Assembly (NCBI GenBank): GCA_964416275.1
Contig: CAYQDU010000003.1
Location: 1 to 62,131 of the forward strand
DNA length: 62,131 bases
Source of the DNA: an uncultured Anaerolinea sp.
GTDB taxonomy: Bacteria > Chloroflexota > Anaerolineae > Anaerolineales > UBA4823
Direction: 5' to 3'
In this document: in pieces, positions 4,729 through 30,162 of the stretch
Layout of the letters: every line of letters begins with the position of its first letter
Position numbering within the stretch: position 1 is the stretch's first letter
Notes under the pieces: model-generated
Told to the model about the DNA's origin: nothing
What the model saw: only the letters and a program-made list of their open reading frames with translations
Databases searched by the model: none
Made by a program: the position numbers and the translations under genes

Positions 4729-5940
4729 ATGTCTGATAACAATCATTCTGATGGTTTCGCGCGGCGCGGCGCCAGGCTGTCGATCCTGGCGCTGGTCATC
4801 ATCGCCGGGGTTGGCTTGATCGCGTTGTTCGTCTACGCCCTCTCGCCTGGCCCGGCTGTTCCCGCGCCGGTGGGCAGCGATTTTCCCGGCGCTGCGTCTC
4901 CACCCACCCAGGCCCCGGTCGCCTCAGAGACGGTCCCCATCACCCAGGTGGTGGCCGACATTAACGGCCGCATTGTGACCCTGGAGACGGTGCAGACAAT
5001 GGCCCATGTCGACCAGGCCATGAGCGACCTGTTCGGCGCGCCATCTACCCCCGATTTGCTCGACCGGGCAGTGAACGGCGAGCTGGTCTGGCAGGCCGCC
5101 CAGGCGGCCGGAGAGCCGGCCGCCGCCCCGGTTTCGGATGCCGATCTGGCAGCCTGGCTGAACCAGGCCGGGCGCAGCCAGGCCGAACTGGCCGCCGCTC
5201 TTGATGCGCATGGGATCGATCTGGACGCCTTCCGGGTTTATTTTGCTCGCTTGCAGTTGGTAGAACGTTTTTCAGCCCGGCAGGCCGCTGGGCTGGGGAT
5301 CGGCCCGGAGGAATACGTGCGCCGGCTTCAGCGCCAGGCGCAGATCAGCTTTGGCCCGGCTGCAGCCGGGCTGGCAAACCAGGCCCAGGCGGTTTCTACC
5401 GCCGCTCCCAGCGGCGATCCTGGCGCGCAGACCGTTGCCGCGCCGCAGGTCAGCGTGACGACCAGCGGCGCGCCGGCCGCGCCGCCCGTCGAAGTTGGCC
5501 CGCACGAGGGTCTGCTGGCCCCGCCGTTTGAACTACCGGCCCTGGGCTCCGCTGGCCCCAGCCTGTCGCTGGCGGCGTTGAACGGTAAGCCCGCCGCGCT
5601 GACCTTCTTTGCCACCTGGTGCCCCTACTGCCGCCGCCAGACCCCGCTGTTGGTGGAGGCGGCCCGCAAATACGCCGGCTCGGTGCAGTTCGTGGGGATC
5701 GATGTGGGTGAGAATGAGGCCCAGGCCCAGGGTTACATCAAAGAGATGGGCATCTCCTACCCGGTGGCGCTGGACGACGCCAGCCAGGTGGGCGGGCTGT
5801 ACGCCGTGACCGGCTTTCCGACCACGTTTTTCATCGACGCCCAGGGGGAAATCGTCCGGGTGCAGGTGGGGTTGATGTCGGCTGAGGATTTAGAGGCGCA
5901 GTTGCAGCAATTGTTGACTTCATCCGACATAGAAAACTGA
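4729..5940 (+). CDS. Membrane-anchored SurA N-terminal-like chaperone domain fused to a TlpA/redoxin thiol-disulfide oxidoreductase
   Basis: N-terminal TM helix (LSILALVIIAGVGLIALFVYAL) and Pro-rich linker; VVADINGRIVT...LLDRAVNGELVWQAAQAAG...LRRQAQISF resembles SurA_N; the C-terminal domain has APPFEL, FFATWCPYCRRQTP (CxxC), FVGIDVGE, YPVALD and GFPTTFFID. Confidence 0.75.
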   Translation: MSDNNHSDGFARRGARLSILALVIIAGVGLIALFVYALSPGPAVPAPVGSDFPGAASPPTQAPVASETVPITQVVADINGRIVTLETVQTMAHVDQAMSDLFGAPSTPDLLDRAVNGELVWQAAQAAGEPAAAPVSDADLAAWLNQAGRSQAELAAALDAHGIDLDAFRVYFARLQLVERFSARQAAGLGIGPEEYVRRLQRQAQISFGPAAAGLANQAQAVSTAAPSGDPGAQTVAAPQVSVTTSGAPAAPPVEVGPHEGLLAPPFELPALGSAGPSLSLAALNGKPAALTFFATWCPYCRRQTPLLVEAARKYAGSVQFVGIDVGENEAQAQGYIKEMGISYPVALDDASQVGGLYAVTGFPTTFFIDAQGEIVRVQVGLMSAEDLEAQLQQLLTSSDIEN

Positions 5941-5954
5941 TGATCGATGGGGCT

Positions 5955-5988
5955 GGCCGGCATGCAGCGCGGCTGCATGCCGGCCTTT
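5955..5988 (+). terminator. Perfect 14-bp hairpin with a short T tract; possible weak terminator or processing stem
   Basis: GGCCGGCATGCAGC-GCG-GCTGCATGCCGGCC-TTT immediately after the stop at 5940. Confidence 0.35.
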
Positions 5989-6084
5989 CGATAACAATCT
6001 TTGCCGAATTCAGAAACGACCAAATATTCAGCCGGTCCGGGGGAATCGGCTCCACAATAGAAATGCGCGGCGCGGAGGTAGGGT

Positions 6085-9000
6085 ATGGATTCAAAATATA
6101 GCATTCGGTTTGTTTTGGGGCGTCTGCAGAAAGCAGCCCGGCGCACATCGGGCCGTGCGCTGCGCTTGTTCAACCTGGTGGTGGCCTGGACGATGCTGTT
6201 GAGCCAGGTCTTCCCGCTTTCGGTGGCCCTGGCGGCCGGGCTGGACGCCCCGGTTGGGCCGGCGGCGCGTCCGAACGACCCGTTCGCCTCGCTCCAGGGT
6301 GCGGCCGGAGAGTGGGAAGCCTCGCCTGCGCCCACGCTGAGCGCCCGCAGCCTGCCGGGCTGGTGGCAGCCCGCCGCCGCGCCGGTGGAAGGGCTGAATC
6401 AAAACCTGGCCCCTGCCTGGTTGAAACCAGAGTCTCCGGCGGCCCAGGCCCCGGCCGCGGCCGCCCTGGGCGGCGGTCTGACGCCCGGCTGGTTGAACGC
6501 CGCTGAAACGGCCGCGGTCGAGACGGCCAACAGTTCCCTGGGGTCTACGCTGACGCCTGGCTGGCTGGGCGCCGCTCCCGGCGGCCCGCAGGCCAGCGGC
6601 GCGCGCGGCCCGCTGAAAGCGCCCGGCGTTTGCCCGGCGGCGGCTAACCTGGCTTTGAACCTGATCCTGCCGGACTACACCATCAGCCGGGGCAACGCTG
6701 CCGGCGATGTGTATACCCTCACGGTGCGCAACACCAGCGCCATCAGCGTCCCCGAAGTCAGCCTGCTGATCGACCCGAACGCAGGCTTTTACTATCTGGC
6801 GGGCAGCGCCACGGCCAGCAGCTCGGTTTCTGGCACGCTGACCCTATCGGCCCCTCCGGCCAACACCGCCCCCGACGCGGCTTTTACCCTGACCCCGCTG
6901 GGCGCGCCCATCCCGCCTCAAAAGACCCTCCAGCCGGGCGAAATCATTACCCTGACCTTCCGCCTGGCGACTGACGCCAACGCCGCCTCTGGCCAGCAGT
7001 TGTTCGCCAGCCTGCAAAGCGGCTCGCCGGCGTCCACGTTCTGTAAAAGCACGGTCAGGAACGTGCCGACGGCGCGCGGCAACCTGGTGGTCGAGAAATC
7101 GCCCACCGTCCAGAACGGCAGTTACGGCGAGATCAAAACCTGGAACGTGACGTTGAAGAACACCGGCCTGGGCATGGTTTACGGCGGCCAGTTCGCCGAT
7201 GTAGCCGGGCCGGGGTATATCGGCCTGAATGTGGCCCCGGCGATTACGCCGGTCGATCTGGCCCCCAGCCAGATGGCCCTGTACACCGTCACCGCCCAGA
7301 TCAACGCCTGCACCAACTTGACCAATACCGTCAGCGCCTGGTGGTCGATTGGCAATTCGGACGGCACGGCCACCCTGGCGAACCCGTTGGAAGATGGGGT
7401 AGACATTTTGTATCTGCTCAGCGAGCCGGGCGTGAAGGTGGAAATGGGCGGGCTGCCCGCCCAGACCTACTGCGGCGCGTTGAGCGCCGATATTCCGATC
7501 ACCGTCACCAGCCTGGGGCCTGGCCCGGCCCGTAATCTGTCGCTGATCGCCCAGACCGGCGGGGTGAGCATTTCCACCAGCGACCCCCATTGGAGCCAGG
7601 CCGGCGACACCTTTACCTACCTGGGCGGGTCGCCGGTGGGGTCGCTGCTGGCTCATCAGGTGGTCACATTCACGCTGCATGTGACCTCGCCGCGCCTGTG
7701 CAATTCACAGACCCTGGCGGTGGACTTTACCCCTCACTTCCAGGATGCCTGCCAGCTTTTGGATTACAGCGGCGTGACGGGCAGCGCCTCCGTCTTGACC
7801 GCCAACGACGCCCCCAGCCTGGAACTGATCAAGAGCGGCCCGTCGGGGACGGTGTTGGCTGGAGACATATTTACCTACGAAGTCCACATCTCTGGTAATA
7901 ATCGGGAGATGATCGTGGCCCCCGGTGTGGTTGTGACCGACGTGGTCCCGGCCAACCTGGTGATCCAGAATGTTTCGACCACCGGCGGGCCGTTCGTGCA
8001 GGCCGGGCAGGCTATCACCTGGACGCTGCCCGCTACGGCCACGCCCGGCCCGTATAGCGAAACGCTGTATATCAAGGTACGCGTGCCGAACCAGGGCGAG
8101 CTGAGCTGCGCTGCGCCGCTGGGCATCACCAACATCGCTTATGCCCGGGCCCAGGGCTGCGCGCAGTGCGCGCCCATGGTCGTCTCGGATACGCTCACCA
8201 ATCGCCTGAACGATTACCAGCCCGGTTTGGGAGCCAGCATTACCCGCGTCACCCCGCCGGTGGAACTGTGCGCCCCGCCGACCACCTTCTCGAACCTGAT
8301 CGACATCACCAACGGCATCACCTGGGCGAACACCATTTTCAGCGACACGTTGGGCCTGGGCTTGCTCAGCCAACCGCTGCACGTGGTGGCCGGGAGCGTG
8401 AAGGTGCTGGTGAATGGCGCAGACCGCACCGCCGATGTGGCGACGACCCTGGGGCCGCCGCTGCGCATCGACTTAAGCGCCATCGGAACTTACAGTAATA
8501 CCGCCCAAATCGCCATTACCTATCAGGTGACGGCTTCTTTGGGGACGATTCCGTTCAATTCCTCCGAACAGACCATCTATTACCCAGCCGAGTTCCGGCT
8601 GGGCGGTAGCCCGCGCAGCGGCTGCCCCGGCGGCGACCTGGCCTACGCCGGTACGGAGGTGCGCCTGGTGCAGGGCGTGCTGGACTTCACCGTCACCCCC
8701 GGCGATGTATTGGCCTGTCACGTGAACAACGTGCTGCTCACGGTCAGCGGCATGAACAACAACACCCTGACCAACCACATGCAGGTCACCTTCCAGGCCG
8801 ACCCGAACGATATTTTCACGCCTACCCATTACACCCTGGGCGGTTCGTTTGCCGGGCTGACTCCAACGGTGCTGAAAGTGGGCAATGTAGTCACCTTCAC
8901 CTTCCCCACCGGGCAAGATTACGATGGGGTGGGAACTATCGTCTTCCCCCTGTTCCGCCCCTGCGGGGTGGAGACCACCCTCCAGGCGGGGGTGGTCTAT

Positions 9001-12000
9001 CAAGACCGCTGCCAGGTGACCCGCACCGGCGTCGGCACGGGCGGCAGCACCACCCTGGTCTCAAAGGTGGACCTGTTCGTTACGCCCAATAAATACACCG
9101 TCAACACCCGCGATACGGTCTGGCGCTTCTACGTGGGCAACTTCAGCAGTGTGACCGCCGAAGATGTGATCGTAACCAACACCCTGCCGCTCGGCCATAA
9201 GCTGCAGACGTATGACCTTTCCAGCACCTCGGCTCCCACCAACACGGTCTCGATGATTACCGGCACGCTGCCTTCCGGGCAAGAGGTGGTCACGTTCACC
9301 CTGTCCAGCCTGCCGCCGTATGGCCGCATTCGTTTCGACGTGTACGGTAAGATCGACAGCATCTGCAACCTGCCGACGCGGATCAACATCGCGTTGCTCG
9401 ATCAGTGTGGGATGGTAGGCGAAGGATCGGGCGTATGCCAGGGGCGTAAAGACGCCTTTGTAGACCTGCTGCCCGGCCCGGCTTTCCTGGTGACCAGCAA
9501 CGACCAGACCGCCCACCTGCCGCTGTGCGAAACCGGCTACGTGCGCCTGACGGTCAAAAACTCGTCGGCCAGCGCCGATGAGTTTAATTTCAAGATTACC
9601 GATGTGTTGACCAACGTCACTGTTACCGGGCCGGTGACGGCCACGGTAGTGGACGAAAACGGGCAGATCATCGTCGGCGAGACCTCTGGCCTGCCGCTGC
9701 AGGGGGTGGCGTTTAGTCCCAACATCGTTACCACTGGAAATCAGCAAAACCTGACCTGGGAGCAGAGCATGTTCGCCCCCGGCACGCCCGGCTATGACAT
9801 CTTGCAGCGCCGCCAGGCCAGCGATGTGATTACGATCTTCATGCGGGTGCGCACCGGCTGCACCGGCACCGATGCCCGCGTCCAGTCGTTTGTCGACGCG
9901 CGGGATGTATGCGCTCGCCCGTTGGCAAGCGCCGAAAACGCCAAGACCCTGCTGACCGACGCGCCAGCGTTGAACGCTGTCAAGCGCGGCTATAACGTCA
10001 CCCGCGGCTATCCGCTGACCAACCCGGTCTATGCCTATCCCGGCGACACCCTGCGCTGGGAAGTGGATGTGACCAACGTGGGCGACCAGCACGTGCTGAA
10101 CCTGTGGGTGACCGACACGCTGCCCGCCAACTTCACCTATGCCAACGCCAACCTGGGCGGCGCATACGCCGCCGGGCAGGTGGTCTGGAACCTGACCGGT
10201 ACGCCGGTGCTGAATATCGGCGAAACCAAGACCTTTGTCGTCACCGGCACGGTGACCAACCTGGTGTGCAGCGATACGCAGAACCGGGTTCTGGCGGTGT
10301 TTGGCTGCACCGCCGGCGACCGCTGTTCAGGCTTACCGGCCAACACCGACTTCACCCTGCAAACCCGGCCCAATGCCTTCAGCCTGACCTCCTCCGGCGA
10401 CCTCAGCACCTGCGGCGGACTGGTGACGGTCAACATCAACAACGACGGCGCGCCAGCCGCTAACGTGACCCTGACCGACACGCTGCCCACCGGCTACGTG
10501 TACGAAGCGTTTGTTTCGGCCACCGCCGCGCCGAACGTGCTGCCGGCGGCCGGGGCCGCCAAGCCGGTCTTTGGCTGGACCGGGGCTAACCTGCTGCCGC
10601 GCGGCCTGACCACCCTGGTCTTCCGGGTGCGTAATGCCGCCGCCTCCGGGGCCTGCGCTGCGCCCGGCCTGCCGCTGACCAACCAGACCGACCTGAACAT
10701 GCAGGACGGCTGCGGCAATAACTACGGCGCTGCTAACACTACCTCCAGCGGCTTCAACCTGACCACGCCCAACCTGAGTGTGACCAAGACGCCTGTCACC
10801 CAGTTCCGCAACGTAGGCGACGTAGCCAATTGGACCCTGACGGTGCGCAACACCGGCGCCGCCCCGGCCCCCAACGTGGTCATTACCGACCGGGTGGGCA
10901 GCAACTTCGGTTCGCTGAGCGCCTCGGCTGGTTCGTTTGGCGGCACCTCGGCGGTCATCGTGGGCAACACCATCCACTGGACGCCGGCCATCACGCTGCC
11001 GGTGGGCGGCCAGTGGACGGCTACCGTCAATGGCACGCTCTTGAGCGTCGGCGATAACACCAACCAGGTCACTGCCACCGCTGCCTGCGCCAGCGGCTGC
11101 CAGTACGCCGCGGTCAACACTACCGCTTACGTCACGCTGATCTCGCAGTTCGATAAAGGCCCCAATTCGATTATGACCGGTACGATTGGCGACGTGAAGG
11201 TGTTTACCTTCACGGTGGGCCTGCCGGACGTGGACGGCGTGTATCAAAACCTATCGCTGGTGGATACCCTGCCAGCCGGGTTGGGCTACGTTGGCTCGCG
11301 GGTGGTGTATCAGCAGGATATGGATAACCCCACCCCGCCCGCGCCGGTGATCGTCACCACGCCCAGTTCGGCCCCGGCCTATCTGAGCAGCGGGGTGATC
11401 CAATGGAACCTGGGGACGCTGAACGGCGTGGCTGTGGCTACCGGCGTGATTACCACCGTCATTCGCGACATTCCCACCAACTATGGCAGCCCGCAGGCGG
11501 GGTACGTGCGCCTGACCAACAACCTGAACCTGAGCTACACCGAAGACGGCCAGCCGTATACCTATAACGATACCGCCAGCGCCGATGTATACGAACCGCT
11601 GCTGCACCTGAGCAAGAATTACCGCACCGCGCAGGGCTGCGCCTCGGCCTTGCTGATCGACAACTTCAACGACGGCAACACCCTGGGCTGGACGGTGAGC
11701 GGCGGCGCGCTGGCGCTGAACGGCTACACCTTGCAGATGCCCACCGGGGCCAACCGGCGCGCCCTCGCAGGATCGACCACCTGGGGTGATGCCAGCTTCT
11801 CGGCCTTCGCCCTTTCCACCGGCGTGACCCACGCCACCGACAACGACCTGGGCCTGATCTTGCGCGCCAACAGCGTAAATACCTACTATCGCCTGTACTG
11901 GCGGCGCAACCTGGCCGGAACCACCGGCGCTTACCGCCTGGATCGGGTGGTGGGCGGCACGGCCACGAACCTGGTGAACACGGCCGCCCCGGCCGCCTAC

Positions 12001-21000: not shown

Positions 21001-21936
21001 GTCACCGACTGGCTGCCGGGCGAGGTGATCTTCGTCTCGGCCCAGCCCGTCCAGGTCGGCGGGCCGAACCCGCTCACCTGGAACCTGGGGACTCTGCCGG
21101 TCAACGCCACCCGCCAGATCACGGTAGTGGTGCGAGTGACCGACTGGGCCACCCAGAACTTCACCAACCTTGCCCAGGTCGATAGCAGCACGCCCGACCC
21201 TGACCCGAACAACAATCAGGATGACGAGCTGACCTACATGAACGGCGTGGCCGACCTGTCGATTGTCAAGGAGGCCCTGCCCAACCCGGTGCTGCCCGAG
21301 TCGGAGATGTACTACCTGCTGACGGTGCATAACGCCGGGCCATCGCCGGCCCAGGATGTGGTGGTGAGCGATACGCTGCCGGCCGAGGTGCGCCTGATTT
21401 CGGCCTCGCCCACCGCCGCCAGCGGCCCGCGCCCGTTCGTCTGGAACCTGGGGACGCTGCAGGTGGGCGAAACCCGCCAGATCACCCTGACGGTCTTCGT
21501 CGAGGGCTGGGCCAACGGAGCCTTTACCAACACGGCCGTAGTCGGCTCGTCTACGCCCGACCCTGACCCGGAGGATAATACCTCCACCTCGACCGTGGTG
21601 GTTGGCACGCCCACCGGGCTGACCCTGGCCGGTGTGAGCGCCGTCCCGGCCGGGCCGGGCCAGGTGCGGCTGGAATGGACGACCCTCGCCGAGGGCAACG
21701 CCCAGGGCTTCCAGGTTTACCGCTCGGCCAGCCGCGACTTCGCCTCGGCCGAACTGGTGCAGGTCGTCTCGCTGCAAGGGGCCGGGGCGCACTACCAGGC
21801 CCTGGATGTCCCGCCGGCCGCCGGGGTGTGGTACTACTGGCTGGCAACGGTGGACGCCTCCGGGCGCATAACCCAACCGGCTGTTTTGATGGTTTCGGTC
21901 TACTGGCAGTACCTGCCGGTATTGAGAAAGGAGTAG
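6085..21936 (+). CDS. Giant (5283 aa) secreted DUF11/'conserved repeat domain' surface protein with an inserted lectin-like domain, a C-terminal Fn3/Ig-like domain and a terminal YLPVLRK motif
   Basis: Long Sec-type signal (basic N-region, LFNLVVAWTMLLSQVFPLSVALA). 22 clear tandem ~120-aa repeats (DLxxxK...G..vTYtl.vtN.GPs.A..V.v.D.LP...C...C.lG.L...N.A) between ~13440 and 21600, plus about eight divergent repeats upstream. Consistent GC3-rich codon usage; GGAGG ribosome-binding site at the start. Confidence 0.9.
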   Translation: MDSKYSIRFVLGRLQKAARRTSGRALRLFNLVVAWTMLLSQVFPLSVALAAGLDAPVGPAARPNDPFASLQGAAGEWEASPAPTLSARSLPGWWQPAAAPVEGLNQNLAPAWLKPESPAAQAPAAAALGGGLTPGWLNAAETAAVETANSSLGSTLTPGWLGAAPGGPQASGARGPLKAPGVCPAAANLALNLILPDYTISRGNAAGDVYTLTVRNTSAISVPEVSLLIDPNAGFYYLAGSATASSSVSGTLTLSAPPANTAPDAAFTLTPLGAPIPPQKTLQPGEIITLTFRLATDANAASGQQLFASLQSGSPASTFCKSTVRNVPTARGNLVVEKSPTVQNGSYGEIKTWNVTLKNTGLGMVYGGQFADVAGPGYIGLNVAPAITPVDLAPSQMALYTVTAQINACTNLTNTVSAWWSIGNSDGTATLANPLEDGVDILYLLSEPGVKVEMGGLPAQTYCGALSADIPITVTSLGPGPARNLSLIAQTGGVSISTSDPHWSQAGDTFTYLGGSPVGSLLAHQVVTFTLHVTSPRLCNSQTLAVDFTPHFQDACQLLDYSGVTGSASVLTANDAPSLELIKSGPSGTVLAGDIFTYEVHISGNNREMIVAPGVVVTDVVPANLVIQNVSTTGGPFVQAGQAITWTLPATATPGPYSETLYIKVRVPNQGELSCAAPLGITNIAYARAQGCAQCAPMVVSDTLTNRLNDYQPGLGASITRVTPPVELCAPPTTFSNLIDITNGITWANTIFSDTLGLGLLSQPLHVVAGSVKVLVNGADRTADVATTLGPPLRIDLSAIGTYSNTAQIAITYQVTASLGTIPFNSSEQTIYYPAEFRLGGSPRSGCPGGDLAYAGTEVRLVQGVLDFTVTPGDVLACHVNNVLLTVSGMNNNTLTNHMQVTFQADPNDIFTPTHYTLGGSFAGLTPTVLKVGNVVTFTFPTGQDYDGVGTIVFPLFRPCGVETTLQAGVVYQDRCQVTRTGVGTGGSTTLVSKVDLFVTPNKYTVNTRDTVWRFYVGNFSSVTAEDVIVTNTLPLGHKLQTYDLSSTSAPTNTVSMITGTLPSGQEVVTFTLSSLPPYGRIRFDVYGKIDSICNLPTRINIALLDQCGMVGEGSGVCQGRKDAFVDLLPGPAFLVTSNDQTAHLPLCETGYVRLTVKNSSASADEFNFKITDVLTNVTVTGPVTATVVDENGQIIVGETSGLPLQGVAFSPNIVTTGNQQNLTWEQSMFAPGTPGYDILQRRQASDVITIFMRVRTGCTGTDARVQSFVDARDVCARPLASAENAKTLLTDAPALNAVKRGYNVTRGYPLTNPVYAYPGDTLRWEVDVTNVGDQHVLNLWVTDTLPANFTYANANLGGAYAAGQVVWNLTGTPVLNIGETKTFVVTGTVTNLVCSDTQNRVLAVFGCTAGDRCSGLPANTDFTLQTRPNAFSLTSSGDLSTCGGLVTVNINNDGAPAANVTLTDTLPTGYVYEAFVSATAAPNVLPAAGAAKPVFGWTGANLLPRGLTTLVFRVRNAAASGACAAPGLPLTNQTDLNMQDGCGNNYGAANTTSSGFNLTTPNLSVTKTPVTQFRNVGDVANWTLTVRNTGAAPAPNVVITDRVGSNFGSLSASAGSFGGTSAVIVGNTIHWTPAITLPVGGQWTATVNGTLLSVGDNTNQVTATAACASGCQYAAVNTTAYVTLISQFDKGPNSIMTGTIGDVKVFTFTVGLPDVDGVYQNLSLVDTLPAGLGYVGSRVVYQQDMDNPTPPAPVIVTTPSSAPAYLSSGVIQWNLGTLNGVAVATGVITTVIRDIPTNYGSPQAGYVRLTNNLNLSYTEDGQPYTYNDTASADVYEPLLHLSKNYRTAQGCASALLIDNFNDGNTLGWTVSGGALALNGYTLQMPTGANRRALAGSTTWGDASFSAFALSTGVTHATDNDLGLILRANSVNTYYRLYWRRNLAGTTGAYRLDRVVGGTATNLVNTAAPAAYGLNRWYHLEARVQDYALQFYIDGALVLSYTDANAAHLAAGQSGLFTQNQTTAYFDDVLASRYGRSGCLVGAGDLVTYTLTISNQQVITAYNPRLVDVIPAGLSLQSYSWKSDDAGTSLSAGPTPVPGAAGSLTWDFNRLAPRVPFAANRHTAITMTVTLAVSPAITVSQRLANQAHLTYDGQAGAGPVGIQRAYDGGTHSNGVRTIDPYILKSSSPANATIGEPVYFTITVPSHPITATLYNITITDNVPANLLVLPGTVQIVGGTGVVNQTLGNNLRVLFGSIPAGTVAYIRYTAVVRDVLANQEGVVVPNTATLAWGTQTTTTLPVNVTLIEPSLGISKVVSPTNAAPGQMVFYTVSAYHLAGDTETAYNVTISDVVPASLAYLPGSWHIVNGPAGTASDAADPTLRAIFPVVGPTWTAANPLRLVYAAQVRAWAAPGALITNTARLTYTSTPTDTYGETRDGSGGVDDYFASQTADLALPEISVTKTGPITVTAGNLITYLVTVRNEGPFAAPAIVTDTLPFQVSFVSATPSQGSCVHTYNPTGGQLVCNLGSLAPGQATIQVVGRVDPNTPLAADLTNRVRVTTTSPDGATTNNTAEVDTEVYTSSDVGLNKSGPTTAIAGQTITYTIAVSNTGPSTAHTVDIKDLLPPGVSYVGASASQGLCVAGICQLGDLPTGQTVHIVVTATVGANVSGTLVNTAQAFSVSSDPNPANNVDTQITTVSSLTRLMISKVDLTDPVYAGDTYFYEVVITNTGPSAAQNVVISDTLPPYVHYEGASPECFHDGSPVGGQITCNLGTMAPLEVRDYLINVRVLSDVISGTVGINRVSATTTTPLAAGSVLSDQEPTTYLQKLGNPIDLSLLKSVNPASAVAGNGFFTYHLTATNHGPAPASDVILVDAYPREFSFISAVASNGAVCNQGMSCALGALAVNETVYITLVVAVPSDVLAGVYTNTARLTSPAPETDLTNNDAQAASTVTTLANLGLGKLALPNPATPGGDLTYVITVTNTGPSDAANVTVSDALPVGFIPTAIYSSQGNCAAFPCNLGTLTPGASALVWVVGKVSPNAAPGQVDNTANAASSTPGSGASDTVIVGLAGLADLALVKTGTPTSLPGGTVFYTLTLRNLGPSDATGVVLTDTLPVGLSYVSITPPAGCGYLLGRIVCTVGTLAANAQRQFVVQAVVDGSVPPGASLENQAAVTATSPDPNPLNNLANADTSILGQADLVIAKTQLTANPILAGTLVTYTIVVTNTGPGLARQVDVKDQLPAGLSLEHIAASSGGVCGGTVCQFGALLPGETRTITVTARVDEDAPAGTVTNVGAVYSVDESNPGNNTATTTTTLVTSADLSVAKVDLSDPVEPLGGLIYQLVASNAGPSAAQGVIVTDTLDANVVFVNATPGCVYAAGQVVCTVGTLAGGASASFLVAVTAGDVPSGTLLHNAALVAGTTPDGNPTNNQTTITTTVQAPNGPSAEVGIAKTGLPASVAAGDVVTYTLTVTNAGPQAATNVRVLELIPAGTTALSLTADNPDAGDEHCSLGGACYLGTVYSTTVATIQVVLRVNPDYAGNQVVNTASVSADQFDPLPGNNIASAATDVTQAADLLLAKSDLMDPVLAGDLILYQVWVTNTGPSLAQAVVVTDAIPVGTVFAGASPVCAESSGIVTCALGDLPAGAATSVWVQVRADQSLPDPTVVTNTARVHSSTPDSDPNNNVDSEPTTVHQSTLNPTDLAIVKGDAPDPVIAGNLLTYTLVVTNYGPAPASGVQVADALPSGTSLVSAIASQGVGCYGSVVCLLGDLAVNATAHITIVVRVDPNQQVALNNLAQVSSTSVDNNPNNNQAFAATQVETSADLQLTKTGPVAAQPGGNIAYQIIVQNLGPSDAQAVVVSDTLPLELQSAVASASQGACAIAAGVVTCNLGSLPAGGQAVIDIAGLLDPHATAAFANAAEVESATPDPNTGNNWDDALTTPTPGADLELQKTATPTAPAGGAILYNLRVYNHGISQAQNIVVTDTLPAGMTYASASPACAFTAGQVICTLAALDVNASVTFTILVTAASDIIPGTSLENRAVVGSSTPDSNPENNHDNADTSIIALADLGIDKRTVADPVVAGDLVTYTIVVTNYGPSLAQAVQVWDFLPAGVTLASVTPSQGICSLTVCLLGDLDVGATATLTLTGRINPNLAAGTILRNRAQTTSATPDPGPYSNTDTVTNTTTRLADLSLVKTHTGLMTPGLPFTYRLTVSNLGPSLASAVVVTDSLPLSVTFVSSTASCLRTASNPDMVACSLGNLAAGASASFDLLVLPDARLTAGTLTNLAQTASVTPDPEPTNNQTGDLTTVQPAADLRLSKSDNPDPVVAGQLLTYTLIAANLGPSLAQAVIVTDTLPLSLTYLSSSLPCSLIGSHPQVIACALGDLLPGATQTFQVVTRVDPGVPPGASLHNYALVGSLTPDTNPTNNVGSAVTTVIAQSDLAVDKTCPPDPLIAGGIVTYTVVISNSGPSTAQDVDVKDFLPIGLIPLGAHTTDGQPCLPNLCQLGDLQPGEVVTMVVTAQVDPSQPIESHLDNQATGFTDTNDPNPGNNSDSCSNMILSEARLVIEKHDLVDPVGQGGLLIYALNVTNTGPSSAQDVTVIDTLPAQVTYLSSTDHCVEGPAGSLTCSLGTILPNTTQSFLVTVQVPVDVYSGTILHNLAEVSSSTPLTDTSILTDSEDTLVIEPPVPPADLSIVKTENPAVAVAGRDDVTYHLQVVNHGPGRATDVEVLDPLPAGLTFVSAQPSQGFCWNAIQCSLGVLEVNASAMITVTAHVNADVLTGTLIANTAIVRGSQPDPDPTNNTSTTTLQIITAADLTIVKLDQPDPATPGELMTYTLAITNHGPSDAQNVLVTDPLPPQVSFVGALPANSAGPNPLTWNLGALAAGQTVHILLWARVDPSVTAPFTNTALVGSSTPEINPTDNSSSTTTQVEPQADLSLAKDGQPHLALNGSVVTYTLTVHNLGPSDVQNAVVTDWLPGEVIFVSAQPVQVGGPNPLTWNLGTLPVNATRQITVVVRVTDWATQNFTNLAQVDSSTPDPDPNNNQDDELTYMNGVADLSIVKEALPNPVLPESEMYYLLTVHNAGPSPAQDVVVSDTLPAEVRLISASPTAASGPRPFVWNLGTLQVGETRQITLTVFVEGWANGAFTNTAVVGSSTPDPDPEDNTSTSTVVVGTPTGLTLAGVSAVPAGPGQVRLEWTTLAEGNAQGFQVYRSASRDFASAELVQVVSLQGAGAHYQALDVPPAAGVWYYWLATVDASGRITQPAVLMVSVYWQYLPVLRKE

Positions 21937-21938
21937 CC

Positions 21939-24866
21939 ATGCCCGTCAAATCGATCCAATCTCGATTAAGCGGCGGTGTTTTGTGGCGAGGCGTGCGCCT
22001 GGCGTTGATGGCGGCTGCGTTGATCTTGCCCCCCGGCCTGGGGCTGGCCTCGGGCCGGGCGGCGGCGGTTGAGCCGCCCGCCGCGCCGCTGGCGCAGGTC
22101 GCCGCCGATGCTTCGGGTGTGACCCTGACCTGGGAAGCGCCCGATCTGCAGATCGAAACCCTGGCCGGCGGCGACCTGCGCCTGAGCGTGGCCGGTTTCT
22201 CGAACCAGGAGACTCCCGGCCAGCCGCGCCTGCCGCTGGCAAGCGCCCTGGTGGCCCTGCCGCCCGGCGCAGCCCCGCGCCTGGATATACTGGACGAGCC
22301 GGAGACCTTTCAACCTGCCGCCGCTCCGCTGGAACTGGCCCCCTACCCGGCCGGCGTGACGCTCGACGCAGCGGGCGCGCCCCTGGCTGCTCGCACAGGG
22401 CCGGGCGCAAGCGATCTGAGCGCCGCTCGCCCGGCCCTTGACCACGCCGTGGTATGGGAGCCGCTGGGCGTGCTGCGCGGGGTGCGCCTGGCGCGGGTCA
22501 GCTTCTACCCCGTCCGGCCGGCTGCCGGCGGGCTGCTGCGGGTCAGGCGAGTCACCGCCCGCCTGGACTTTGGCCTGCCGCCCACCGCCGCCCCGGCCGC
22601 CGCTCGCCTGGCGGGCGACCCGCTGATCGAGGCGGTGCGCCAGATGGTGGTCAACCCGCAGCAGGTTCAGCCGGCGGCGCGGCTGGCCGAAGCCCGGCCG
22701 GCGGCTGGCAGCCCGGTCGTCTGGTATATCGAAGTCGTCCAGACCGGACTGACTGCCCTGGATTACGCCGACCTGCTGGCCGCCGGATACCCGGTAGATT
22801 CGGTTAACCCCGCTCACCTGCACCTCCTGCACGATGGGAGCGAAGTAGACGCCGAATGGGACGGCGACGCCGATGGCCGCTTCGAGGCCGGCGAGCGCCT
22901 GCTGTTCTACGCCGACCCGCACTCCAACCGGTGGGCCAACTTTGACACCTACGCCCTGGTAGAAACCGACACGGTCGGAGCGCGCCTGGCTTCTCGTCCG
23001 GCCAACCCGGCCGGGGCGCTGCCCGGACGCATCTTCGTCACGCAAACTTTTGAACAGAACCGCATCTACACCCCCAAGTGTTATTGCGGCTCGCTGCCTC
23101 TGGGCCGGGATGGCGAACGCTGGGCCTGGCTGGACCTGTCGCTGGGAGGCGCTAACCCGGTCAAGGCCCAGGCCGCCCTGGCCGACGTAGACATTACGCA
23201 ACCGGCCCGGCTGACCGTGTATCTGCTCAGCTATACCGAGGCGATCCAGAATCCCGATCACAAAGTGCAGATTTTCTGGAACGCCACCCTGTTGGGCGAG
23301 GAGAGCTGGAACGGTAAGCAGGCCAAAGCCTTTACCTATGACCTGCACGCCGGGCAGGTGGTGAACGGCCAGAACGAACTGGCCCTCAACTTGCCCGGCC
23401 TGAACGGGGTGAGCCGGGAGGGCGCCTGGCTGGACGCTTTCAGCGTGCAGTATGCTCTGAATACCGCCCTGGCCGCGCCCGGCGCGGCGCTGGGTTTCAC
23501 CGGCGAGGCGGTGCAGCGGGCATACAGCTTGAAGCTCGGCGCAACAGCCGGCCTGCGCGCCTATCAGGTGACCGACCCGCTTCACCCCCTGCGCCTGACC
23601 GACGTGCAGGCGACTGGGAACAACGTGGCATTCAAAGACCCCGATCCGATCGGCGCCCAGCGCTACCTGGTGACCAACGCCGATGGCGTGCTAAAGCCTC
23701 GGGGACTGAGGGCCGCCCAACCGCTGCCCGTGGTGGGCCAGGGCGGTTTCAATGGCGCGGCTTATCTGATCCTCACCCGGCCAGAGTTTGCCGCCCCGCT
23801 GCAAGAGCTGGTTGCCGTGCGCTCCGGGCAGGCTGGCAGCGCTTACCTGCAAACCCTCCAGCCGATCTACGATACCTATGCCTATGGCCGCCCAGACCCG
23901 CAGGCTATTCGCGATTACCTGGACGCCGCCTATCATACCTGGCCCACCCCGCCGCTGTATGTTGTATTAGGCGGAGATGGCACCTATGACCCCAAGCAAT
24001 ATCTGCCCACCAGCCACGCCAGCTATCTGCCGCCCTACCTGGGCGTGGTTGATCCCTGGGCAGGCGAGACGGCCGCTGATAACCGCTTCGTAACCGTGGA
24101 CGGCGACGACAAACTGCCGGATATGCTCATCGGGCGGCTGCCGATCAACTCGCTGGCCGAAGCCCGCACCCTGGTAGACAAAATCCTGGCCTACGAGGGC
24201 CAGTCGGCCGGAGCCGACTGGACTCGCCGCCTGACCCTGGTGGGCGACGACGCCGACACATCGGGCAACTTCATTTCCTACCTGGAACAGATCGCCAACG
24301 GGCTGATTGCCCCGCCCTACATCGCTGATAAGCTGTATTACCAGCCGCCGGTTACGCCAGAGCAAATGCACGCCAATACCGTGCAGCGCTTCCAGGATGG
24401 CTCGCTGCTGACCCTGTTCTTTGGCCACTCGTCGTATCATCAATGGGCCATTGAATACTTCTTCCATGTCACCGACGTGACCTCGCTGACCAACGGCGCT
24501 CGCCTGCCGGTGGTGCTGGAGATGACCTGCTTTACCAGCGAGTTCCAACTGCCCGACCTGACCGCCCTGGACGAGGCCCTGCTGCGCCAGCCAGGCGGCG
24601 GGGCCGTGGCGACCTGGGGCATGAGCGGGCTGGGCCTTTCGCAGGGCCACGCGGCCCTGGCCCAGGGCTTTGTCCAGGATGTGGATGCCGCCACTCTGCC
24701 GCTGGTGGGCAAACTGGCCCTGCAGGGCAAGCTGAACCTGGCGACCCACCTGCCCGCCTACGACTATATGCTCGATACGTTCACGTTGCTGGGCGACCCG
24801 GCTTTGCAGCTTCACGTCTCGACCCTGCCGCTGCGCAGCATCTACCTGCCGGTGGTGGCGCGCTAG
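21939..24866 (+). CDS. Secreted C25-family (gingipain/PorU-like) cysteine peptidase with C25 propeptide-like N-terminus and terminal IYLPVVAR motif
   Basis: The AAGGAG ribosome-binding site overlaps the giant gene's stop; ATG at 21939. Signal peptide ending AAA. PGQPRLP...ALPPG (propeptide-like), YLILTRPEF, PQAIRDYL..AY..W..PPLYVVLGGDG, DGDDKLPDMLIGRLP, FFGHSS (catalytic His), EMTCFTSEF (catalytic Cys), GGGAVATWG, FTLLGDPAL. Confidence 0.85.
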   Translation: MPVKSIQSRLSGGVLWRGVRLALMAAALILPPGLGLASGRAAAVEPPAAPLAQVAADASGVTLTWEAPDLQIETLAGGDLRLSVAGFSNQETPGQPRLPLASALVALPPGAAPRLDILDEPETFQPAAAPLELAPYPAGVTLDAAGAPLAARTGPGASDLSAARPALDHAVVWEPLGVLRGVRLARVSFYPVRPAAGGLLRVRRVTARLDFGLPPTAAPAAARLAGDPLIEAVRQMVVNPQQVQPAARLAEARPAAGSPVVWYIEVVQTGLTALDYADLLAAGYPVDSVNPAHLHLLHDGSEVDAEWDGDADGRFEAGERLLFYADPHSNRWANFDTYALVETDTVGARLASRPANPAGALPGRIFVTQTFEQNRIYTPKCYCGSLPLGRDGERWAWLDLSLGGANPVKAQAALADVDITQPARLTVYLLSYTEAIQNPDHKVQIFWNATLLGEESWNGKQAKAFTYDLHAGQVVNGQNELALNLPGLNGVSREGAWLDAFSVQYALNTALAAPGAALGFTGEAVQRAYSLKLGATAGLRAYQVTDPLHPLRLTDVQATGNNVAFKDPDPIGAQRYLVTNADGVLKPRGLRAAQPLPVVGQGGFNGAAYLILTRPEFAAPLQELVAVRSGQAGSAYLQTLQPIYDTYAYGRPDPQAIRDYLDAAYHTWPTPPLYVVLGGDGTYDPKQYLPTSHASYLPPYLGVVDPWAGETAADNRFVTVDGDDKLPDMLIGRLPINSLAEARTLVDKILAYEGQSAGADWTRRLTLVGDDADTSGNFISYLEQIANGLIAPPYIADKLYYQPPVTPEQMHANTVQRFQDGSLLTLFFGHSSYHQWAIEYFFHVTDVTSLTNGARLPVVLEMTCFTSEFQLPDLTALDEALLRQPGGGAVATWGMSGLGLSQGHAALAQGFVQDVDAATLPLVGKLALQGKLNLATHLPAYDYMLDTFTLLGDPALQLHVSTLPLRSIYLPVVAR

Positions 24867-24891
24867 AAAGCTGATGATAAGGAGGCTACGG

Positions 24892-25758
24892 ATGAAAAAA
24901 TTGCGATTTTGGGCTATGGCGCTGGTGATTGCCCTGTTCGCCCTGGGGCTGCTCAGCGCGATGAACAGCGTGGTGCAGGCTTCGACCGACGTGCGCCCGT
25001 TGGGGTTCACCCCCACCGAGCCGAAGGAGACCAAAGAACCGCCGCTGCCTACGGAGCCGCCTGCCACCGAGCCGCCCGAACCGACCGAGCCGCCCGAGCC
25101 AACCGAGCCGCCGGTCAAGCCCACCCGCATCAAGGAAACCGCCGTCGAGCCGCCCGAACGAGCTACGGCTACGCGCCTCCCCGGCGGATCGGGAATTTCC
25201 CCCACGCTGGGGCCGGGAACGCCGGGCGCTGGCCTGCCCACTGGCGCCCCTACTGGCGCGCCTACCGGGCTGCTTACCCCCGCCCCGCTGCCCACGCTGC
25301 CGCCTGTGCAGGTGAACAGCTGCACCGCCGGGGTGCGCTATATGGTCAAGTTTGTGTGCGGTCTGCAAGAGGAGCAGACTACCGGCGGCGAGCCGCCGGT
25401 CAAGCCGGGCAATTATGCCACCGCCCTGAACCTGCATAACTACACCGACGCGGCGGCTTGCGCCGCGGTGCGCCCGGCCCTGCACTACCTGCCCGGCGAG
25501 AACGCTCCCGCGCCGGCCAGGTGGCAAAGCCTCTCGTTGGCCCCGGCCAGCGACCTGGAAGTGGATTGCAACTACCTGTGGAAGATCACCGGAACCCGGC
25601 CCGGTTCGTTCCTCAAGGGTATGCTCGATGTGGCCCTGAGCCAGAAGCTGCCCCTGGCTGTGGTCTATACCGCCGAGATCACCGACCGCATGGGCCTGAC
25701 CGATAGCGGGGCGGGCATCAGCATTGACGTGGAGTATCTTACGCCCTTCCTGCCGTGA
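24892..25758 (+). CDS. Secreted protein: signal peptide, Pro/Thr/Glu-rich stalk and an uncharacterised C-terminal 'KFVCG...PGNYATALNLHN' domain
   Basis: AAGGAGG ribosome-binding site, MKKLRFWAMALVIALFALGLLSA signal, repeated PTEP/TEPPEP units, globular C-terminus with three Cys. Confidence 0.75.
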   Translation: MKKLRFWAMALVIALFALGLLSAMNSVVQASTDVRPLGFTPTEPKETKEPPLPTEPPATEPPEPTEPPEPTEPPVKPTRIKETAVEPPERATATRLPGGSGISPTLGPGTPGAGLPTGAPTGAPTGLLTPAPLPTLPPVQVNSCTAGVRYMVKFVCGLQEEQTTGGEPPVKPGNYATALNLHNYTDAAACAAVRPALHYLPGENAPAPARWQSLSLAPASDLEVDCNYLWKITGTRPGSFLKGMLDVALSQKLPLAVVYTAEITDRMGLTDSGAGISIDVEYLTPFLP

Positions 25759-25852: not shown

Positions 25853-25898
25853 TATAGTTGAGGGAAGTTGGGCGGTGAAACCGCCCAACTTCCCTCAA

Positions 25899-27320
25899 CT
25901 ATTTTTTGATGAAGGCTTCGCCGCGGGCGAGCCATTGATCGTGGTCGGCGGGGGGGGCGGCGGAGGCCAGCAGGTCTTGGGTCTGCTGGCGCAGGCGGTC
26001 GTCCAGGCGCGGCTGGCCCTGGGCCTGCCATTTTTCCAGGCTCCAGCGCGGGGCCAGCTTGCTGTCGTAGGTGGCGGTTTTGTACAACTGCAGGGTCAGG
26101 TCGGCGTCGAGAAAATTGCCGCCGGGGCCGCGGCGAGCGATCTCGTCCAGCCCCAGGGATTCATCGTCGAGCGCAAAGCCCTGGGAAAAGCGCAGCGCCT
26201 GGGCGATGACCTCGTGCGAGTAGACCAGCAGGCTGGGCGAGAAGGCCTTGGAGCCTAAGGCCCCGCCTACAAAAGGCGCCAGCCCCGATTTTCCCAGCAG
26301 GCTGGTAAGGTGATTGATCCACAGCAGGCCTCCGGCGGCCAGGTCAGCGCCCCAGCCGCTGCCGCTGCCGCTGCCCGATGTTCCGGCGTGGGGCAGGTGG
26401 TAATAAGCCATCATCTCGGCGCAGGCCAGGTTAATCAGCAGGGTATAGGGGTCATAAAAATCCTGCATCGTGCGCATATCGAAGAAAGCCGGCAGGCTGC
26501 CCAGAACTACCGGCGTGCCGGGGCGGGCCAGTTGGGCCAGGGTCAGCCCGGCCAGTAGTTCGGCGTTCATCAAGGCCAGCGTGCCGGCGGCGGTGATGGG
26601 GGTAGACATGCCCGCCAGGCTGTAATTCGAGTAGATGAACGGCAGGCCGCGCTCGATGGTTTCCAGCATCTTATCGGCCGTGCCTTCATTGATAATCAGC
26701 GGGGTAATGGGGTTGAAATAGGGCAGGCAGAAGGGGCGGGCGGCCAGCTCGTCGCCCTGGCCGTATTCGAGCAAATCCAGCGCCCGGCCAAACAGCTTCT
26801 CGTTCGAGATCAGCAGCACCAGCGGCTTGGTGGTGTTGGCCGCCATCTCCAGCACGGCGTACAGGTCGGCGGTTTCGGGCGGGTAATCCTGGATCACGCC
26901 GATGGTCGAAACCACGTCGAAGTGGGGCAGGGCATGGGCCAGGCGCACCGAGTCGGCCATGTGCTGGCGGGCGAAGGGAACGAGGCTGTCGTCGGCCGGG
27001 TTTTGATAATACAGGTTGGTCACTCCGGCTCCAAAGCGAGTGCGGTCGTAGCCCAGGCGGAAGGCCAGCTCGCCAGTGCGGGCGTATAGATCCACCGCTT
27101 GCGGCGCGCTCTGGATCGCCCATTCTACCAGCCGGGGGTCAAGGGCAATGCGATCTTCCGACAGGAAGCTGGCCCCATCGGCGTCGGCGAAAATCTGGCG
27201 GGCGCGAGCCGAATCGACCCGCACCCCGGCCCGCACCAGGATTTCGAGCGATCTTTCATGCACGTAGCGAACCTGTTCGCCGGTTAGAAAGGTTAGATTG
27301 GGAATGGCTAAGCGATTCAT
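25899..27320 (-). CDS. MttB/MtgB-superfamily (trimethylamine methyltransferase family) corrinoid methyltransferase, pyrrolysine-free, paralog 1
   Basis: FLTGEQVRYVHERSLEILVRAGV, YFNPITPL, AGMSTPITAAGTLALMNAELLAGL..AQLARPGTPVV, IARRGPGGNFL. GAGGT ribosome-binding site before the ATG at 27320; no internal TAG. Confidence 0.88.
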   Translation of the reverse strand: MNRLAIPNLTFLTGEQVRYVHERSLEILVRAGVRVDSARARQIFADADGASFLSEDRIALDPRLVEWAIQSAPQAVDLYARTGELAFRLGYDRTRFGAGVTNLYYQNPADDSLVPFARQHMADSVRLAHALPHFDVVSTIGVIQDYPPETADLYAVLEMAANTTKPLVLLISNEKLFGRALDLLEYGQGDELAARPFCLPYFNPITPLIINEGTADKMLETIERGLPFIYSNYSLAGMSTPITAAGTLALMNAELLAGLTLAQLARPGTPVVLGSLPAFFDMRTMQDFYDPYTLLINLACAEMMAYYHLPHAGTSGSGSGSGWGADLAAGGLLWINHLTSLLGKSGLAPFVGGALGSKAFSPSLLVYSHEVIAQALRFSQGFALDDESLGLDEIARRGPGGNFLDADLTLQLYKTATYDSKLAPRWSLEKWQAQGQPRLDDRLRQQTQDLLASAAPPADHDQWLARGEAFIKK

Positions 27321-27411
27321 CGGACCTCGTTTCGTAGTTACGGGATGCGGATTTTCACGGATGGGCATGGATAGAGATTCTTGCACAGATCACAAAGGCC
27401 CCTAAGAACCA

Positions 27412-27448
27412 GGCAGCTCCCCACCTAAGCGGGGTGAAGTTGGCTGGC
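27412..27448 (-). repeat. R1 REP-like module
   Basis: Reverse complement GCCAGCCAACTTCACCCCGCTTAGGTGGGGAGCTGCC matches the copies at 4466, 25818, 33748 and 47113. Confidence 0.7.
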
Positions 27449-27517
27449 GAGCGAAGAAGGGAGCCGTACCTCAAGAATCACAAAGAGAAGAAAAGGCAAG
27501 AAATCTTCACCCGTGGC

Positions 27518-28699: not shown

Positions 28700-28701
28700 G
28701 G

Positions 28702-30147: not shown

Positions 30148-30162
30148 AGCGGGTTCCTCCTT

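Follow-up and report, generated by a model that had tools for sequence, protein, structure and literature searches.

C-terminal sorting systems, including sortase/LPXTG, exosortase/PEP-CTERM, archaeosortase/PGF-CTERM and PorU/T9SS-CTD, organise bacterial and archaeal cell surfaces. PorU, a C25-family cysteine peptidase, is the C-terminal signal peptidase and sortase of the Bacteroidota type IX secretion system (T9SS); it cleaves a beta-sandwich C-terminal domain (CTD) of approximately 70-100 aa, the extreme C-terminal motif of which is essential, and transfers the cargo, while itself keeping a CTD (PMC5445135; PMC11285876). PorU-type C25 enzymes are known to perform this role only inside the T9SS, and Chloroflexota are generally regarded as lacking an outer membrane. 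A further C-terminal tag, the "YLP-box putative sorting motif", is curated in NCBIfam (NF050076 and NF053834) in models of only 10-11 residues which name no enzyme.

Here we describe a locus in a 62,131-nt stretch of DNA from an uncultured Anaerolinea sp., referred to below as the window, in which a giant adhesin gene is directly followed by a gene for a PorU-like C25 peptidase. Both products end in a very short Y-L-P tail, although that of the adhesin is recognised by alignment and not by the NCBIfam models. The pairing recurs across Anaerolineae, which gives the motif a candidate enzyme, candidate substrates and a candidate anchor. Literature searches for C25 peptidases or PorU in Chloroflexi or Anaerolineae, for the YLP-box, and for Chloroflexota sorting signals found nothing relevant, and we found no enzyme model.

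Gene content of the region

The features of the region, all on the + strand, are as follows.

4729-5940 (+), membrane-anchored TlpA/ResA-like thioredoxin protein, 403 aa, WCPYC
5955-5985 (+), perfect 14-bp GC-rich hairpin followed by UUUCG, probably a terminator or transcript boundary
6085-21936 (+), giant secreted fibrillar adhesin (export inferred from sequence), 5283 aa
21607-21933 (+), C-terminal cargo domain of the giant: FN3-like domain of about 90 aa, linker and YLP-box tail
21910-21933 (+), YLP-box tail of the giant, assigned by alignment (YLPVLRKE-COOH)
21939-24866 (+), PorU-like C25 cysteine peptidase, 975 aa
24426-24530 (+), predicted catalytic dyad, His830 (24426-24428, FFGHSS) and Cys864 (24528-24530, MTCF)
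24843-24863 (+), YLP-box tail of the peptidase (YLPVVAR-COOH)
24892-25758 (+), stalk protein, 288 aa
25856-25900 (+), strong intrinsic-terminator-like hairpin (20-bp stem plus T-run) ending the giant-C25-stalk operon

The original prediction had described four same-strand genes with export signals, a giant adhesin without classical anchors and a C25 protein with an intact catalytic dyad, and every one of these observations was confirmed. The junction between the giant and the peptidase reads gagaaAGGAGTAGccATG, with the TAG of the giant at 21934-21936 and the peptidase ATG at 21939 (not 21940). The second junction is a 25-nt gap holding AAGGAGG 6 nt before the ATG at 24892. Each protein begins with a basic stretch followed by a hydrophobic one, from which the export signals were read, and the AF2 model of the stalk places residues 2-32 in a helix.

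The giant possesses an N-terminal signal peptide, as read from the sequence, and a mixed N-terminal region including an RrgB-type isopeptide domain (TIGR04226 hits the N-terminal half). There follow about 27 DUF11/CLIPPER repeats, each with a Cys pair; PF01345 matched 27 stretches (7 + 20), and TIGR01451 also hits. DUF11 is the CLIPPER isopeptide stalk domain (PMC12617251), and the protein qualifies as a fibrillar adhesin of this type. It contains no LPxTG motif, no hydrophobic 19-mer in the last 60 aa and no SLH hit in Pfam, and since its first Cys is residue 183 there is no lipobox. The C-terminal domain matches no Pfam or NCBIfam family, including T9SS CTD models, so that membership of the T9SS-type CTDs was rejected; only weak FN3 matches were found in PDB. 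The tail gave no NCBIfam YLP-box hit at E <= 10, while in an alignment with the C-terminal domains of upstream genes from related loci its L104 and P105 fall in nearly invariant and invariant columns, respectively.

The peptidase consists, in order, of a predicted signal peptide, a gingipain-type prodomain (aa ~50-210), beta-rich middle domains, the catalytic domain (aa 609-958) and the YLP-box tail. It belongs to peptidase family C25 (PF01364, 263.5 bits against a gathering cutoff of 23). His830 and Cys864 are invariant in 24 homologs and align with the catalytic motifs of PorU and RgpB. A profile search of PDB gave PorU (6za2) at E = 5e-35, RgpB at about 1e-32 and the Kgp prodomain at 1e-16. 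With the AF2 model (pLDDT 82.7) Foldseek returned PorU as the best hit, aligned over 820 columns at E = 1.6e-24, although the global TM was only 0.41 and the identity 14%; RgpB (1cvr and 4ief) gave E 1e-16 to 1e-17 with TM on the target of 0.64-0.66, so that the modelled catalytic fold is gingipain-like. By these searches the enzyme resembles PorU more than gingipains. It scores, however, below the NCBIfam cutoffs for PorU (NF033707, 202.9 bits against 420) and PorU2 (142.6 against 450), and only about 20 residues follow the catalytic domain, with no T9SS CTD model hit. The tail, disordered in the AF2 model, passes NF053834 (12.8 bits, cutoff 10) but not NF050076 (12.6, cutoff 15).

The stalk protein, for which no Pfam family was found, comprises a predicted signal peptide, the N-terminal motif RPLGFTPTEP (nt 24997-25014 = P36-P41), about 100 aa of P/T/E-rich spacer and a predicted C-terminal beta-sandwich domain (aa ~145-288, nt 25324-25755). 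AF2 gives a pLDDT of about 95 for aa 145-288 and disorder for aa 33-140. A fold search with the beta-sandwich produced only weak, uninformative matches (TM1070 and the sensory rhodopsin transducer). About 50 proteins share this domain, and its distant homologs are not next to C25 genes; it is therefore not specific to the module.

The first gene had been proposed to encode a SurA-N/TlpA fusion that folds and oxidises the Cys-rich repeats. No SurA family was detected on aa 63-218 even at E <= 10, and only the TlpA/ResA-like thioredoxin domain (aa 263-391) is supported (Redoxin 66 bits and AhpC-TSA 65 bits, both above cutoff). The specific ResA, DsbE and TlpA models score below their cutoffs, ResA at 85 bits against 170. 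TlpA/ResA-type proteins are usually reductants rather than oxidases. The hairpin right after its stop codon (-34 kcal/mol, z = -5.1, 0 of 200 shuffles as stable) separates this gene from the giant, though its T-run is too short for the consensus terminator scan.

Distribution and gene neighborhoods

A search of one-genome-per-species contigs revealed 344 relatives of the C25 protein, and the best 80 loci are all from Chloroflexota, mostly Anaerolineae-class. In tblastn the last 130 aa of the giant hit 53 of these 80 loci, mostly ending just before the C25 gene, within about 2 kb upstream in a few loci and downstream in one. Of the 68 loci with at least 500 nt upstream, 52 have a cargo with the conserved C-terminal domain and YLP tail beside the C25 gene. 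In the reverse direction, four cargo-domain proteins that did not come from the C25-based locus search (P0064, P0075, P0093 and P0126) all lie beside a C25 gene and a sortase. A word-index search with the cargo-domain profile returned only fragments of 210 aa or less, which could not be used to count cargo per genome. The FN3-like domain belongs to a very large repeat superfamily (78,333 hits), and only its C-terminal position together with the tail is specific.

The passengers differ while the C-terminal domain is conserved; they include DUF11 giants, Ice_binding proteins and others, from 131 to 4361 aa among database proteins and over 5,000 aa here. The YLP-box ([YF]-L-P-h-h-x-[RK]) lies at or within 3 residues of the C-terminus, and 91 of 107 members of the C25 family end in it, including orphan copies with no cargo nearby. 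Tails of related cargo and C25 proteins hit NF050076, all below its cutoff, and one cargo tail also passes NF053834. One MAG holds two modules (loci L001 and L014), each with its own C25 gene. The closest relative keeps the giant-C25-stalk order but has a different flank, and the stalk gene follows C25 in the closest relatives L001, L050 and L088. The thioredoxin gene, in contrast, has a homolog in only one of the 80 loci, on the opposite strand.

Many relatives add a small protein with a signal peptide, a P/T-rich spacer and LPXTG, and a sortase. The stalk of the window takes the position of this protein and shares its N-terminal motif, but has the beta-sandwich domain instead of LPXTG. Sortases, confirmed as PF04203, follow the C25 gene in 24 of 80 loci. 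Of 46 loci with at least 3 kb on both sides, 22 have a stalk or a sortase, whereas 8 have a C25 gene with no cargo, stalk or sortase nearby. The 62-kb window has no TLxTC sortase motif and no LPXTG-type end. The related neighborhoods hold monoderm-type sortases and LPXTG proteins, and no PorV, PorZ or PorQ, nor any other T9SS component, is listed in the five loci that came with gene tables, which fits independence from the T9SS.

Proposed function

The original interpretation is thus partly supported: the linkage of C25 to C-terminally tagged cargo, the PorU-like enzyme, the tail and a recurring stalk-type protein hold, while the thioredoxin gene is not part of the system. The proposed four-gene unit is a three-gene operon (6085-25758) with a two-gene conserved core. 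The presence of the same tail on the peptidase, and the sortase and LPXTG stalk of relatives, had been missed.

What the sequence comparisons establish is the gene pair itself: a passenger of any type or size, with a predicted Sec export signal, ending in a ~110-aa FN3-like domain plus a YLP-box tail, and immediately after it, often translationally coupled, a ~950-aa C25 peptidase with an intact His/Cys dyad, a gingipain-type prodomain and the same box. Everything concerning its action, including catalysis, cleavage, transpeptidation and the acceptor, is inferred. In our preferred reading, to which we assign a probability of about 0.45, this is a T9SS-independent, PorU-like C-terminal processing and anchoring module. 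After export, the C25 enzyme would recognise the C-terminal domain and YLP-box of its neighbor and act as a dedicated C-terminal signal peptidase, possibly a transpeptidase as PorU is, whereby the adhesin would be fixed to, or matured at, the cell surface. The stalk would be the wall-side partner, fixed in relatives by a sortase through LPXTG, a job that the beta-sandwich domain would do in the window. The enzyme's own YLP-box would place it at the same site, as PorU shares the CTD of its cargo. The absence of a sortase and LPXTG protein from the window, the sub-cutoff PorU score, the lack of a T9SS-type CTD, the 8 loci without partners, the failure of the giant's tail to reach the NCBIfam models, the presence of the same tail on enzyme and cargo and the very large repeat superfamily to which the FN3-like domain belongs all count against this reading, and the prodomain would also fit an ordinary zymogen protease.

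A more far-reaching version, which we consider unlikely, is that the enzyme is a true transpeptidase or "YLP-sortase", cutting the adhesin at its C-terminal domain or YLP-box and joining it covalently to the N-terminal tip (the conserved G-h-T-x-T-P motif) of a P/T-rich stalk, which a classical sortase would in turn fix to peptidoglycan. This would be a two-enzyme relay for surface display in monoderm Chloroflexota and an evolutionary sibling of the T9SS attachment complex.

The strongest alternative, although less likely than the preferred reading, is that adhesin and peptidase are both clients of an unidentified YLP-box machinery, the C25 enzyme being a co-localised maturation or shedding protease for its neighbor, much like LapG releasing the giant adhesin LapA or gingipains processing surface proteins, and not the sorting enzyme. 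This is suggested by the box on the peptidase itself, orphan copies included, by the gingipain-type prodomain typical of zymogen proteases, and by NCBIfam, which has no model for a matching enzyme and of which the C25 protein hits only PorU models, below cutoff. Also, a third protein type in the same clusters (DUF3344-like, no FN3 domain) ends in an LLP variant of the box. However, no other candidate sorter is conserved in the neighborhoods, the tight one-to-one adjacency, frequent start/stop overlap and paralogous modules are what dedicated enzyme-substrate pairs look like, and PorU, the closest relative, is both a CTD bearer and the CTD peptidase.

It is improbable that the C25 protein is a general extracellular protease for nutrient acquisition which merely shares an operon and a surface-retention tag with adhesins. 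The C25 family does include broad-use proteases such as gingipains, some family members stand alone among housekeeping genes, and the window also encodes M20 and S9 peptidases nearby; but the linkage to one specific C-terminal domain holds across very different passengers, the reverse test found a C25 gene in 4 of 4 cases, and a genome can carry several modules, each with its own enzyme. Least likely is that the sortase reads the YLP-box, with its L-P core, as a degenerate LPxxx signal and that the C25 protein is only another substrate, since, although a sortase occurs in the 24 loci and in all four reached from outside the C25-based search, the box has no T-G and no TM segment or basic anchor after it, a canonical LPXTG substrate lies beside the sortase in a majority of these loci (13 of the 24 in the tabulation), and 56 of 80 loci and the window have no sortase nearby.

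If confirmed, the module would explain how filamentous Anaerolineae, abundant in activated sludge and sediments, display giant adhesins and ice-binding-like proteins, and it could provide a new peptide-tag and enzyme pair for protein ligation.

Comparison with described systems

LapG/LapA resembles this locus in that a giant repeat adhesin is controlled by a dedicated cysteine protease, here by analogy only; LapG belongs to a different protease family and cuts an N-terminal retention module in the periplasm of diderm bacteria, with export by a type I secretion system. In the YLP-box models the link to a C25 peptidase, an FN3-like pre-domain, LPXTG stalks and sortases is not expressed in any model that we could query. 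Sortase/LPXTG anchoring in monoderm bacteria likewise pairs a C-terminal tag with a Cys transpeptidase encoded beside its substrate, and is itself part of many related loci, but the candidate enzyme here is C25, not C60. The gingipains RgpB and Kgp share the catalytic domain fold and the prodomain, but the present enzyme has a large extra beta-rich middle region, no Ig-like domain or T9SS CTD after the catalytic domain, and a specific linkage to one neighbor gene. PorU is the best match by sequence and fold, with a His/Cys dyad, a cargo carrying a ~100-aa beta-sandwich C-terminal domain whose extreme C-terminus matters, and an enzyme sharing the C-terminal signal of its cargo (PMC11285876). 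In our case the cargo domain is FN3-like, the host belongs to Chloroflexota with sortases and LPXTG proteins as neighbors in related loci, and the enzyme is encoded one-to-one beside its cargo rather than once per genome.

Gene organization

Four open reading frames on the + strand, as the original prediction described them, were confirmed in the region, and these are bounded and divided by two hairpins.

4729-5940 (+), 403 aa, thioredoxin-domain protein
5955-5985, perfect 14-bp hairpin
6085-21936 (+), 5283 aa, giant DUF11 adhesin
21939-24866 (+), 975 aa, C25 peptidase
24892-25758 (+), 288 aa, stalk-type protein
25856-25900, 20-bp-stem hairpin with a T-run

The TAG stop codon of the giant gene (21934-21936) lies inside gagaaAGGAGTAGccATG, so that the ribosome-binding site of the peptidase is in the last codons of the giant. 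The next gap is 25 nt and holds AAGGAGG. The 20-bp-stem hairpin, which lies between the convergent stalk gene and the first MttB gene, probably ends the stalk-gene transcript, and its position would let it serve the MttB gene as well.

The giant protein contains about 27 DUF11 repeats plus an RrgB-type isopeptide domain, and its Cys residues come mostly in pairs. No LPxTG, hydrophobic C-terminus or SLH hit was found. DUF11 has been renamed CLIPPER, an isopeptide-bonded stalk domain of fibrillar adhesins (PMC12617251). The peptidase is a clear member of family C25 (263 bits) in which the FFGHSS and MTCF motifs are intact, and H830 and C864 are invariant in 24 homologs.

The first gene, which the original prediction had included as a SurA-N/TlpA foldase/oxidase, is a bystander. 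Only its thioredoxin half is supported, with Redoxin and AhpC-TSA scoring above cutoff and the specific ResA, TlpA and DsbE models below cutoff, while the proposed SurA-N part gives no SurA hit even at E <= 10. The 14-bp hairpin (-34 kcal/mol, z = -5.1) separates this gene from the giant, and among 80 related loci a single one possesses a homolog, on the other strand.

On the - strand, positions 25899-36097 hold four MttB-family methyltransferase genes and a B12-binding corrinoid protein interleaved with M20 and S9 peptidase genes, which suggests methylated-amine or betaine demethylation. Further along the same strand (39289-45099) is a 1936-aa two-module NRPS (A-T-C-A-T-TE), next to what look, from sequence alone and without a domain search, like a glycosyltransferase, an MFS transporter and a flippase.

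A conserved pair of tagged proteins

Homologs of the peptidase (40-85% identity; the source names, where given, are Anaerolineales or Thermoflexales) almost all end in [YF]LP[LIV][VI]x[RQN]-COOH. The enzyme in the window ends in IYLPVVAR and the giant in QYLPVLRKE. A scan of one genome per species revealed 344 relatives, the best 80 loci of which (numbered here with the prefix L) are all from Chloroflexota MAGs, most of them labelled Anaerolineae, Anaerolineales, Thermoflexales, Caldilineales, Ardenticatenaceae or Promineifilaceae, or named Leptofilum, Amarolinea or Litorilinea. The last 130 aa of the giant hit 53 of these 80 loci, mostly ending just before the C25 gene, within about 2 kb upstream in a few loci and downstream in one, and both ORFs end in the box. 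Using an HMM of the cargo domain, 52 of the 68 loci with at least 500 nt upstream were found to carry it.

The cargo C-terminal unit is about 110 aa in length, as judged from two alignments, with the consensus PTAVELLYF...V.L.WATA.E.DNFGFNLYRA...A..IHFEP...G.GA.Y.Y.DT.P..G.WWYWL.DVDT.G.E..HGP, followed by 8-15 residues and then YLPLV.R. It belongs to no Pfam or NCBIfam family and gives only weak FN3 matches in PDB. The passengers, in contrast, differ completely, and include DUF11 giants, Ice_binding (PF11999) proteins of 350-520 aa, an unknown 350-aa type, and proteins of 900-3300 aa.

A profile search of 1.84 billion representatives returned 78,333 hits, showing that the FN3-like fold is a very large repeat superfamily. 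Of the 146 new proteins among the 150 best hits, 85 end in a YLP-type tail by a loose pattern (a few are chance matches); nearly all of those carry a single C-terminal copy of the domain, and their lengths range from 131 to 4361 aa. The same FN3-like domain type also occurs in other proteins from this search (P0089, P0131, P0136, P0179; P0097, P0134, P0164, P0195 and others), some of which end in a TM segment plus a basic tail, while others have many tandem copies and end in T9SS-type tails (...GIYFYRL....KKMVLIK). The domain seems to be a general module placed before an anchor and used with several sorting systems.

The tail logo of the enzyme is T-[IL]-V-P-W-x(3-4)-[YF]-L-P-[LIV]-[VI]-x-R-COOH, and that of the cargo is L-P-[YF]-[RQ]-h-[YF]-L-P-[LVI]-[VIL]-h-[KR], with 0-3 more residues. 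NCBIfam already holds two models of 10-11 residues, NF050076 (sort_motif_YLP) and NF053834 (ultrashort_CTERM), both described as "YLP-box putative sorting motif-containing protein." The tail of the window enzyme passes NF053834 (12.8 against a cutoff of 10). Related cargo and enzyme tails hit NF050076, all below its cutoff of 15, and one cargo tail also passes NF053834, whereas the tail of the giant itself hits neither model. The tag has therefore been noticed, though our literature searches revealed no paper on it and none on C25 enzymes in Chloroflexota, and no NCBIfam model exists for this enzyme family.

The linkage was also examined in reverse. Four cargo-domain proteins which did not come from the C25-based locus search (P0064, P0075, P0093 and P0126) all lie beside a C25 gene and a sortase. 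One MAG (CAZHFU01) carries two paralogous modules, each with its own C25 gene: a giant-adhesin type with a globular stalk (L001) and an ice-binding type with a sortase (L014). The closest relative, at 85% identity, keeps the order giant-C25-stalk but has KaiC and KaiB downstream instead of the flank seen in the window; the three genes therefore travel as a unit. Orphan C25 genes that keep the YLP-box were found in L008, L032, L057, L060, L066, L069 and L055, with no cargo, stalk or sortase within reach, among what look, from ORF sequences alone, like housekeeping genes (a recurring "...FRRRFGGSPIARIG.ERL.RNAR" ORF).

Stalk-type proteins and sortases

A sortase is located just after the C25 gene in 24 of the 80 loci; it is confirmed as PF04203 but scores far below every sortase class cutoff. 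About 20 loci have a protein of 140-250 aa with a signal peptide, a P/T-rich spacer (sometimes with one CLIPPER domain), LPXTG or LPxxG, a TM segment and a basic tail. Of the 46 loci with at least 3 kb on both sides, 35 have cargo, 16 an LPXTG stalk, 13 a sortase, 22 a stalk or a sortase, and eight none of these.

The 288-aa protein of the window sits at the stalk position, and shares the signal peptide, the P/T/E-rich disordered spacer and a short motif just after the signal peptide, P-[LVM]-G-[IVLF]-T-x-T-P, which here reads RPLGFTPTEP (24997-25014 for P36-P41). This motif is found in the stalk-type proteins of L002, L004, L007, L013, L015, L019, L021, L039, L047, L083, L087 and others, and in several of these the predicted AxA cleavage site would leave an N-terminal Gly (GFTETP, GFTPTP, GFTSTP). 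It also occurs in two proteins that are not next to a C25 gene (P0248 and P0251). In two loci (L052, 12718-13593; L064, 12636-13523) the sortase ORF itself begins with a signal or TM segment, the same motif as G-F-T-N-T-P and a P/T-rich linker before the sortase domain, so that stalk and sortase appear to be fused.

The window protein does not end in LPXTG but in a confidently predicted beta-sandwich (25324-25755; pLDDT about 95), and the window has no sortase. The beta-sandwich defines an uncatalogued family of about 50 small secreted proteins (P0242-P0291) with no Pfam hit and the signature Y.VKFVCG...GEPPVKPGNYAT.INIHN...DCN.IW...GISIDVE. A fold search gave no informative structural match, and in distant members the domain is not tied to C25 genes.

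A further protein of about 560 aa follows the sortase in L009 (13797-15488) and L082 (14473-16152). In L082 it is listed as DUF3344; the L009 protein has no FN3-like domain hit and ends in ...VLLPLIFR, a variant of the YLP-box. It may be a third class of tagged protein in the same clusters.

The C25 peptidase

A profile search against PDB matched the enzyme to PorU (6za2, E = 5e-35), RgpB (about 1e-32) and, over aa 50-201, the Kgp prodomain (1e-16). The AF2 model is good (pLDDT 82.7, pTM 0.84), although the last 15 residues, including the tail, are disordered. Foldseek ranks PorU first over 820 columns (E = 1.6e-24), followed by RgpB and Kgp on the catalytic part, with the gingipain prodomains matching the N-terminus. 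The protein is not a PorU equivalog, since it scores 203 bits against a cutoff of 420, and it also lacks a T9SS CTD.

Proposed function and comparison with PorU

The observation behind the original prediction is thus confirmed. Its interpretation is supported in part: the idea of a C25 enzyme linked to its cargo stands, the data fit independence from T9SS, with no T9SS component listed in the five loci that came with gene tables, the stalk protein stands in modified form, and the foldase/oxidase component falls. What the analysis demonstrates is the gene linkage, the shared tail, the intact dyad, the best match to PorU in sequence and fold over most of the length, and the sortase and LPXTG partners. 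From these we surmise, with a probability of about 0.45, that the C25 enzyme acts on the C-terminal unit of its neighbour as a C-terminal signal peptidase, possibly a transpeptidase; catalysis of either kind is inferred, as is the role of the stalk, which would be the wall-side partner.

The main alternative, which we consider less likely, is that both proteins are clients of an unknown YLP-box sorter and that the enzyme is a maturation or shedding protease. Three findings favour this reading: the orphan C25 copies keep the box, the enzyme has a zymogen-type prodomain, and the DUF3344-like protein type, which is without the FN3 domain, ends in ...LLPLIFR. A general nutritional protease, or the sortase as the reader of the box, is less likely still.

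In the proposed model the module would combine a C-terminal sorting tag with a dedicated cysteine enzyme, an arrangement for which there is precedent. The tag itself is already catalogued; the enzyme, the FN3-like pre-domain and the link to stalk and sortase are not described in anything that we could search. The precedent of PorU fits on three points (PMC5445135; PMC11285876): a beta-sandwich C-terminal domain of about 70-110 aa is removed from the cargo, the enzyme carries the same kind of signal, uncleaved, and the last residues of the signal are essential.
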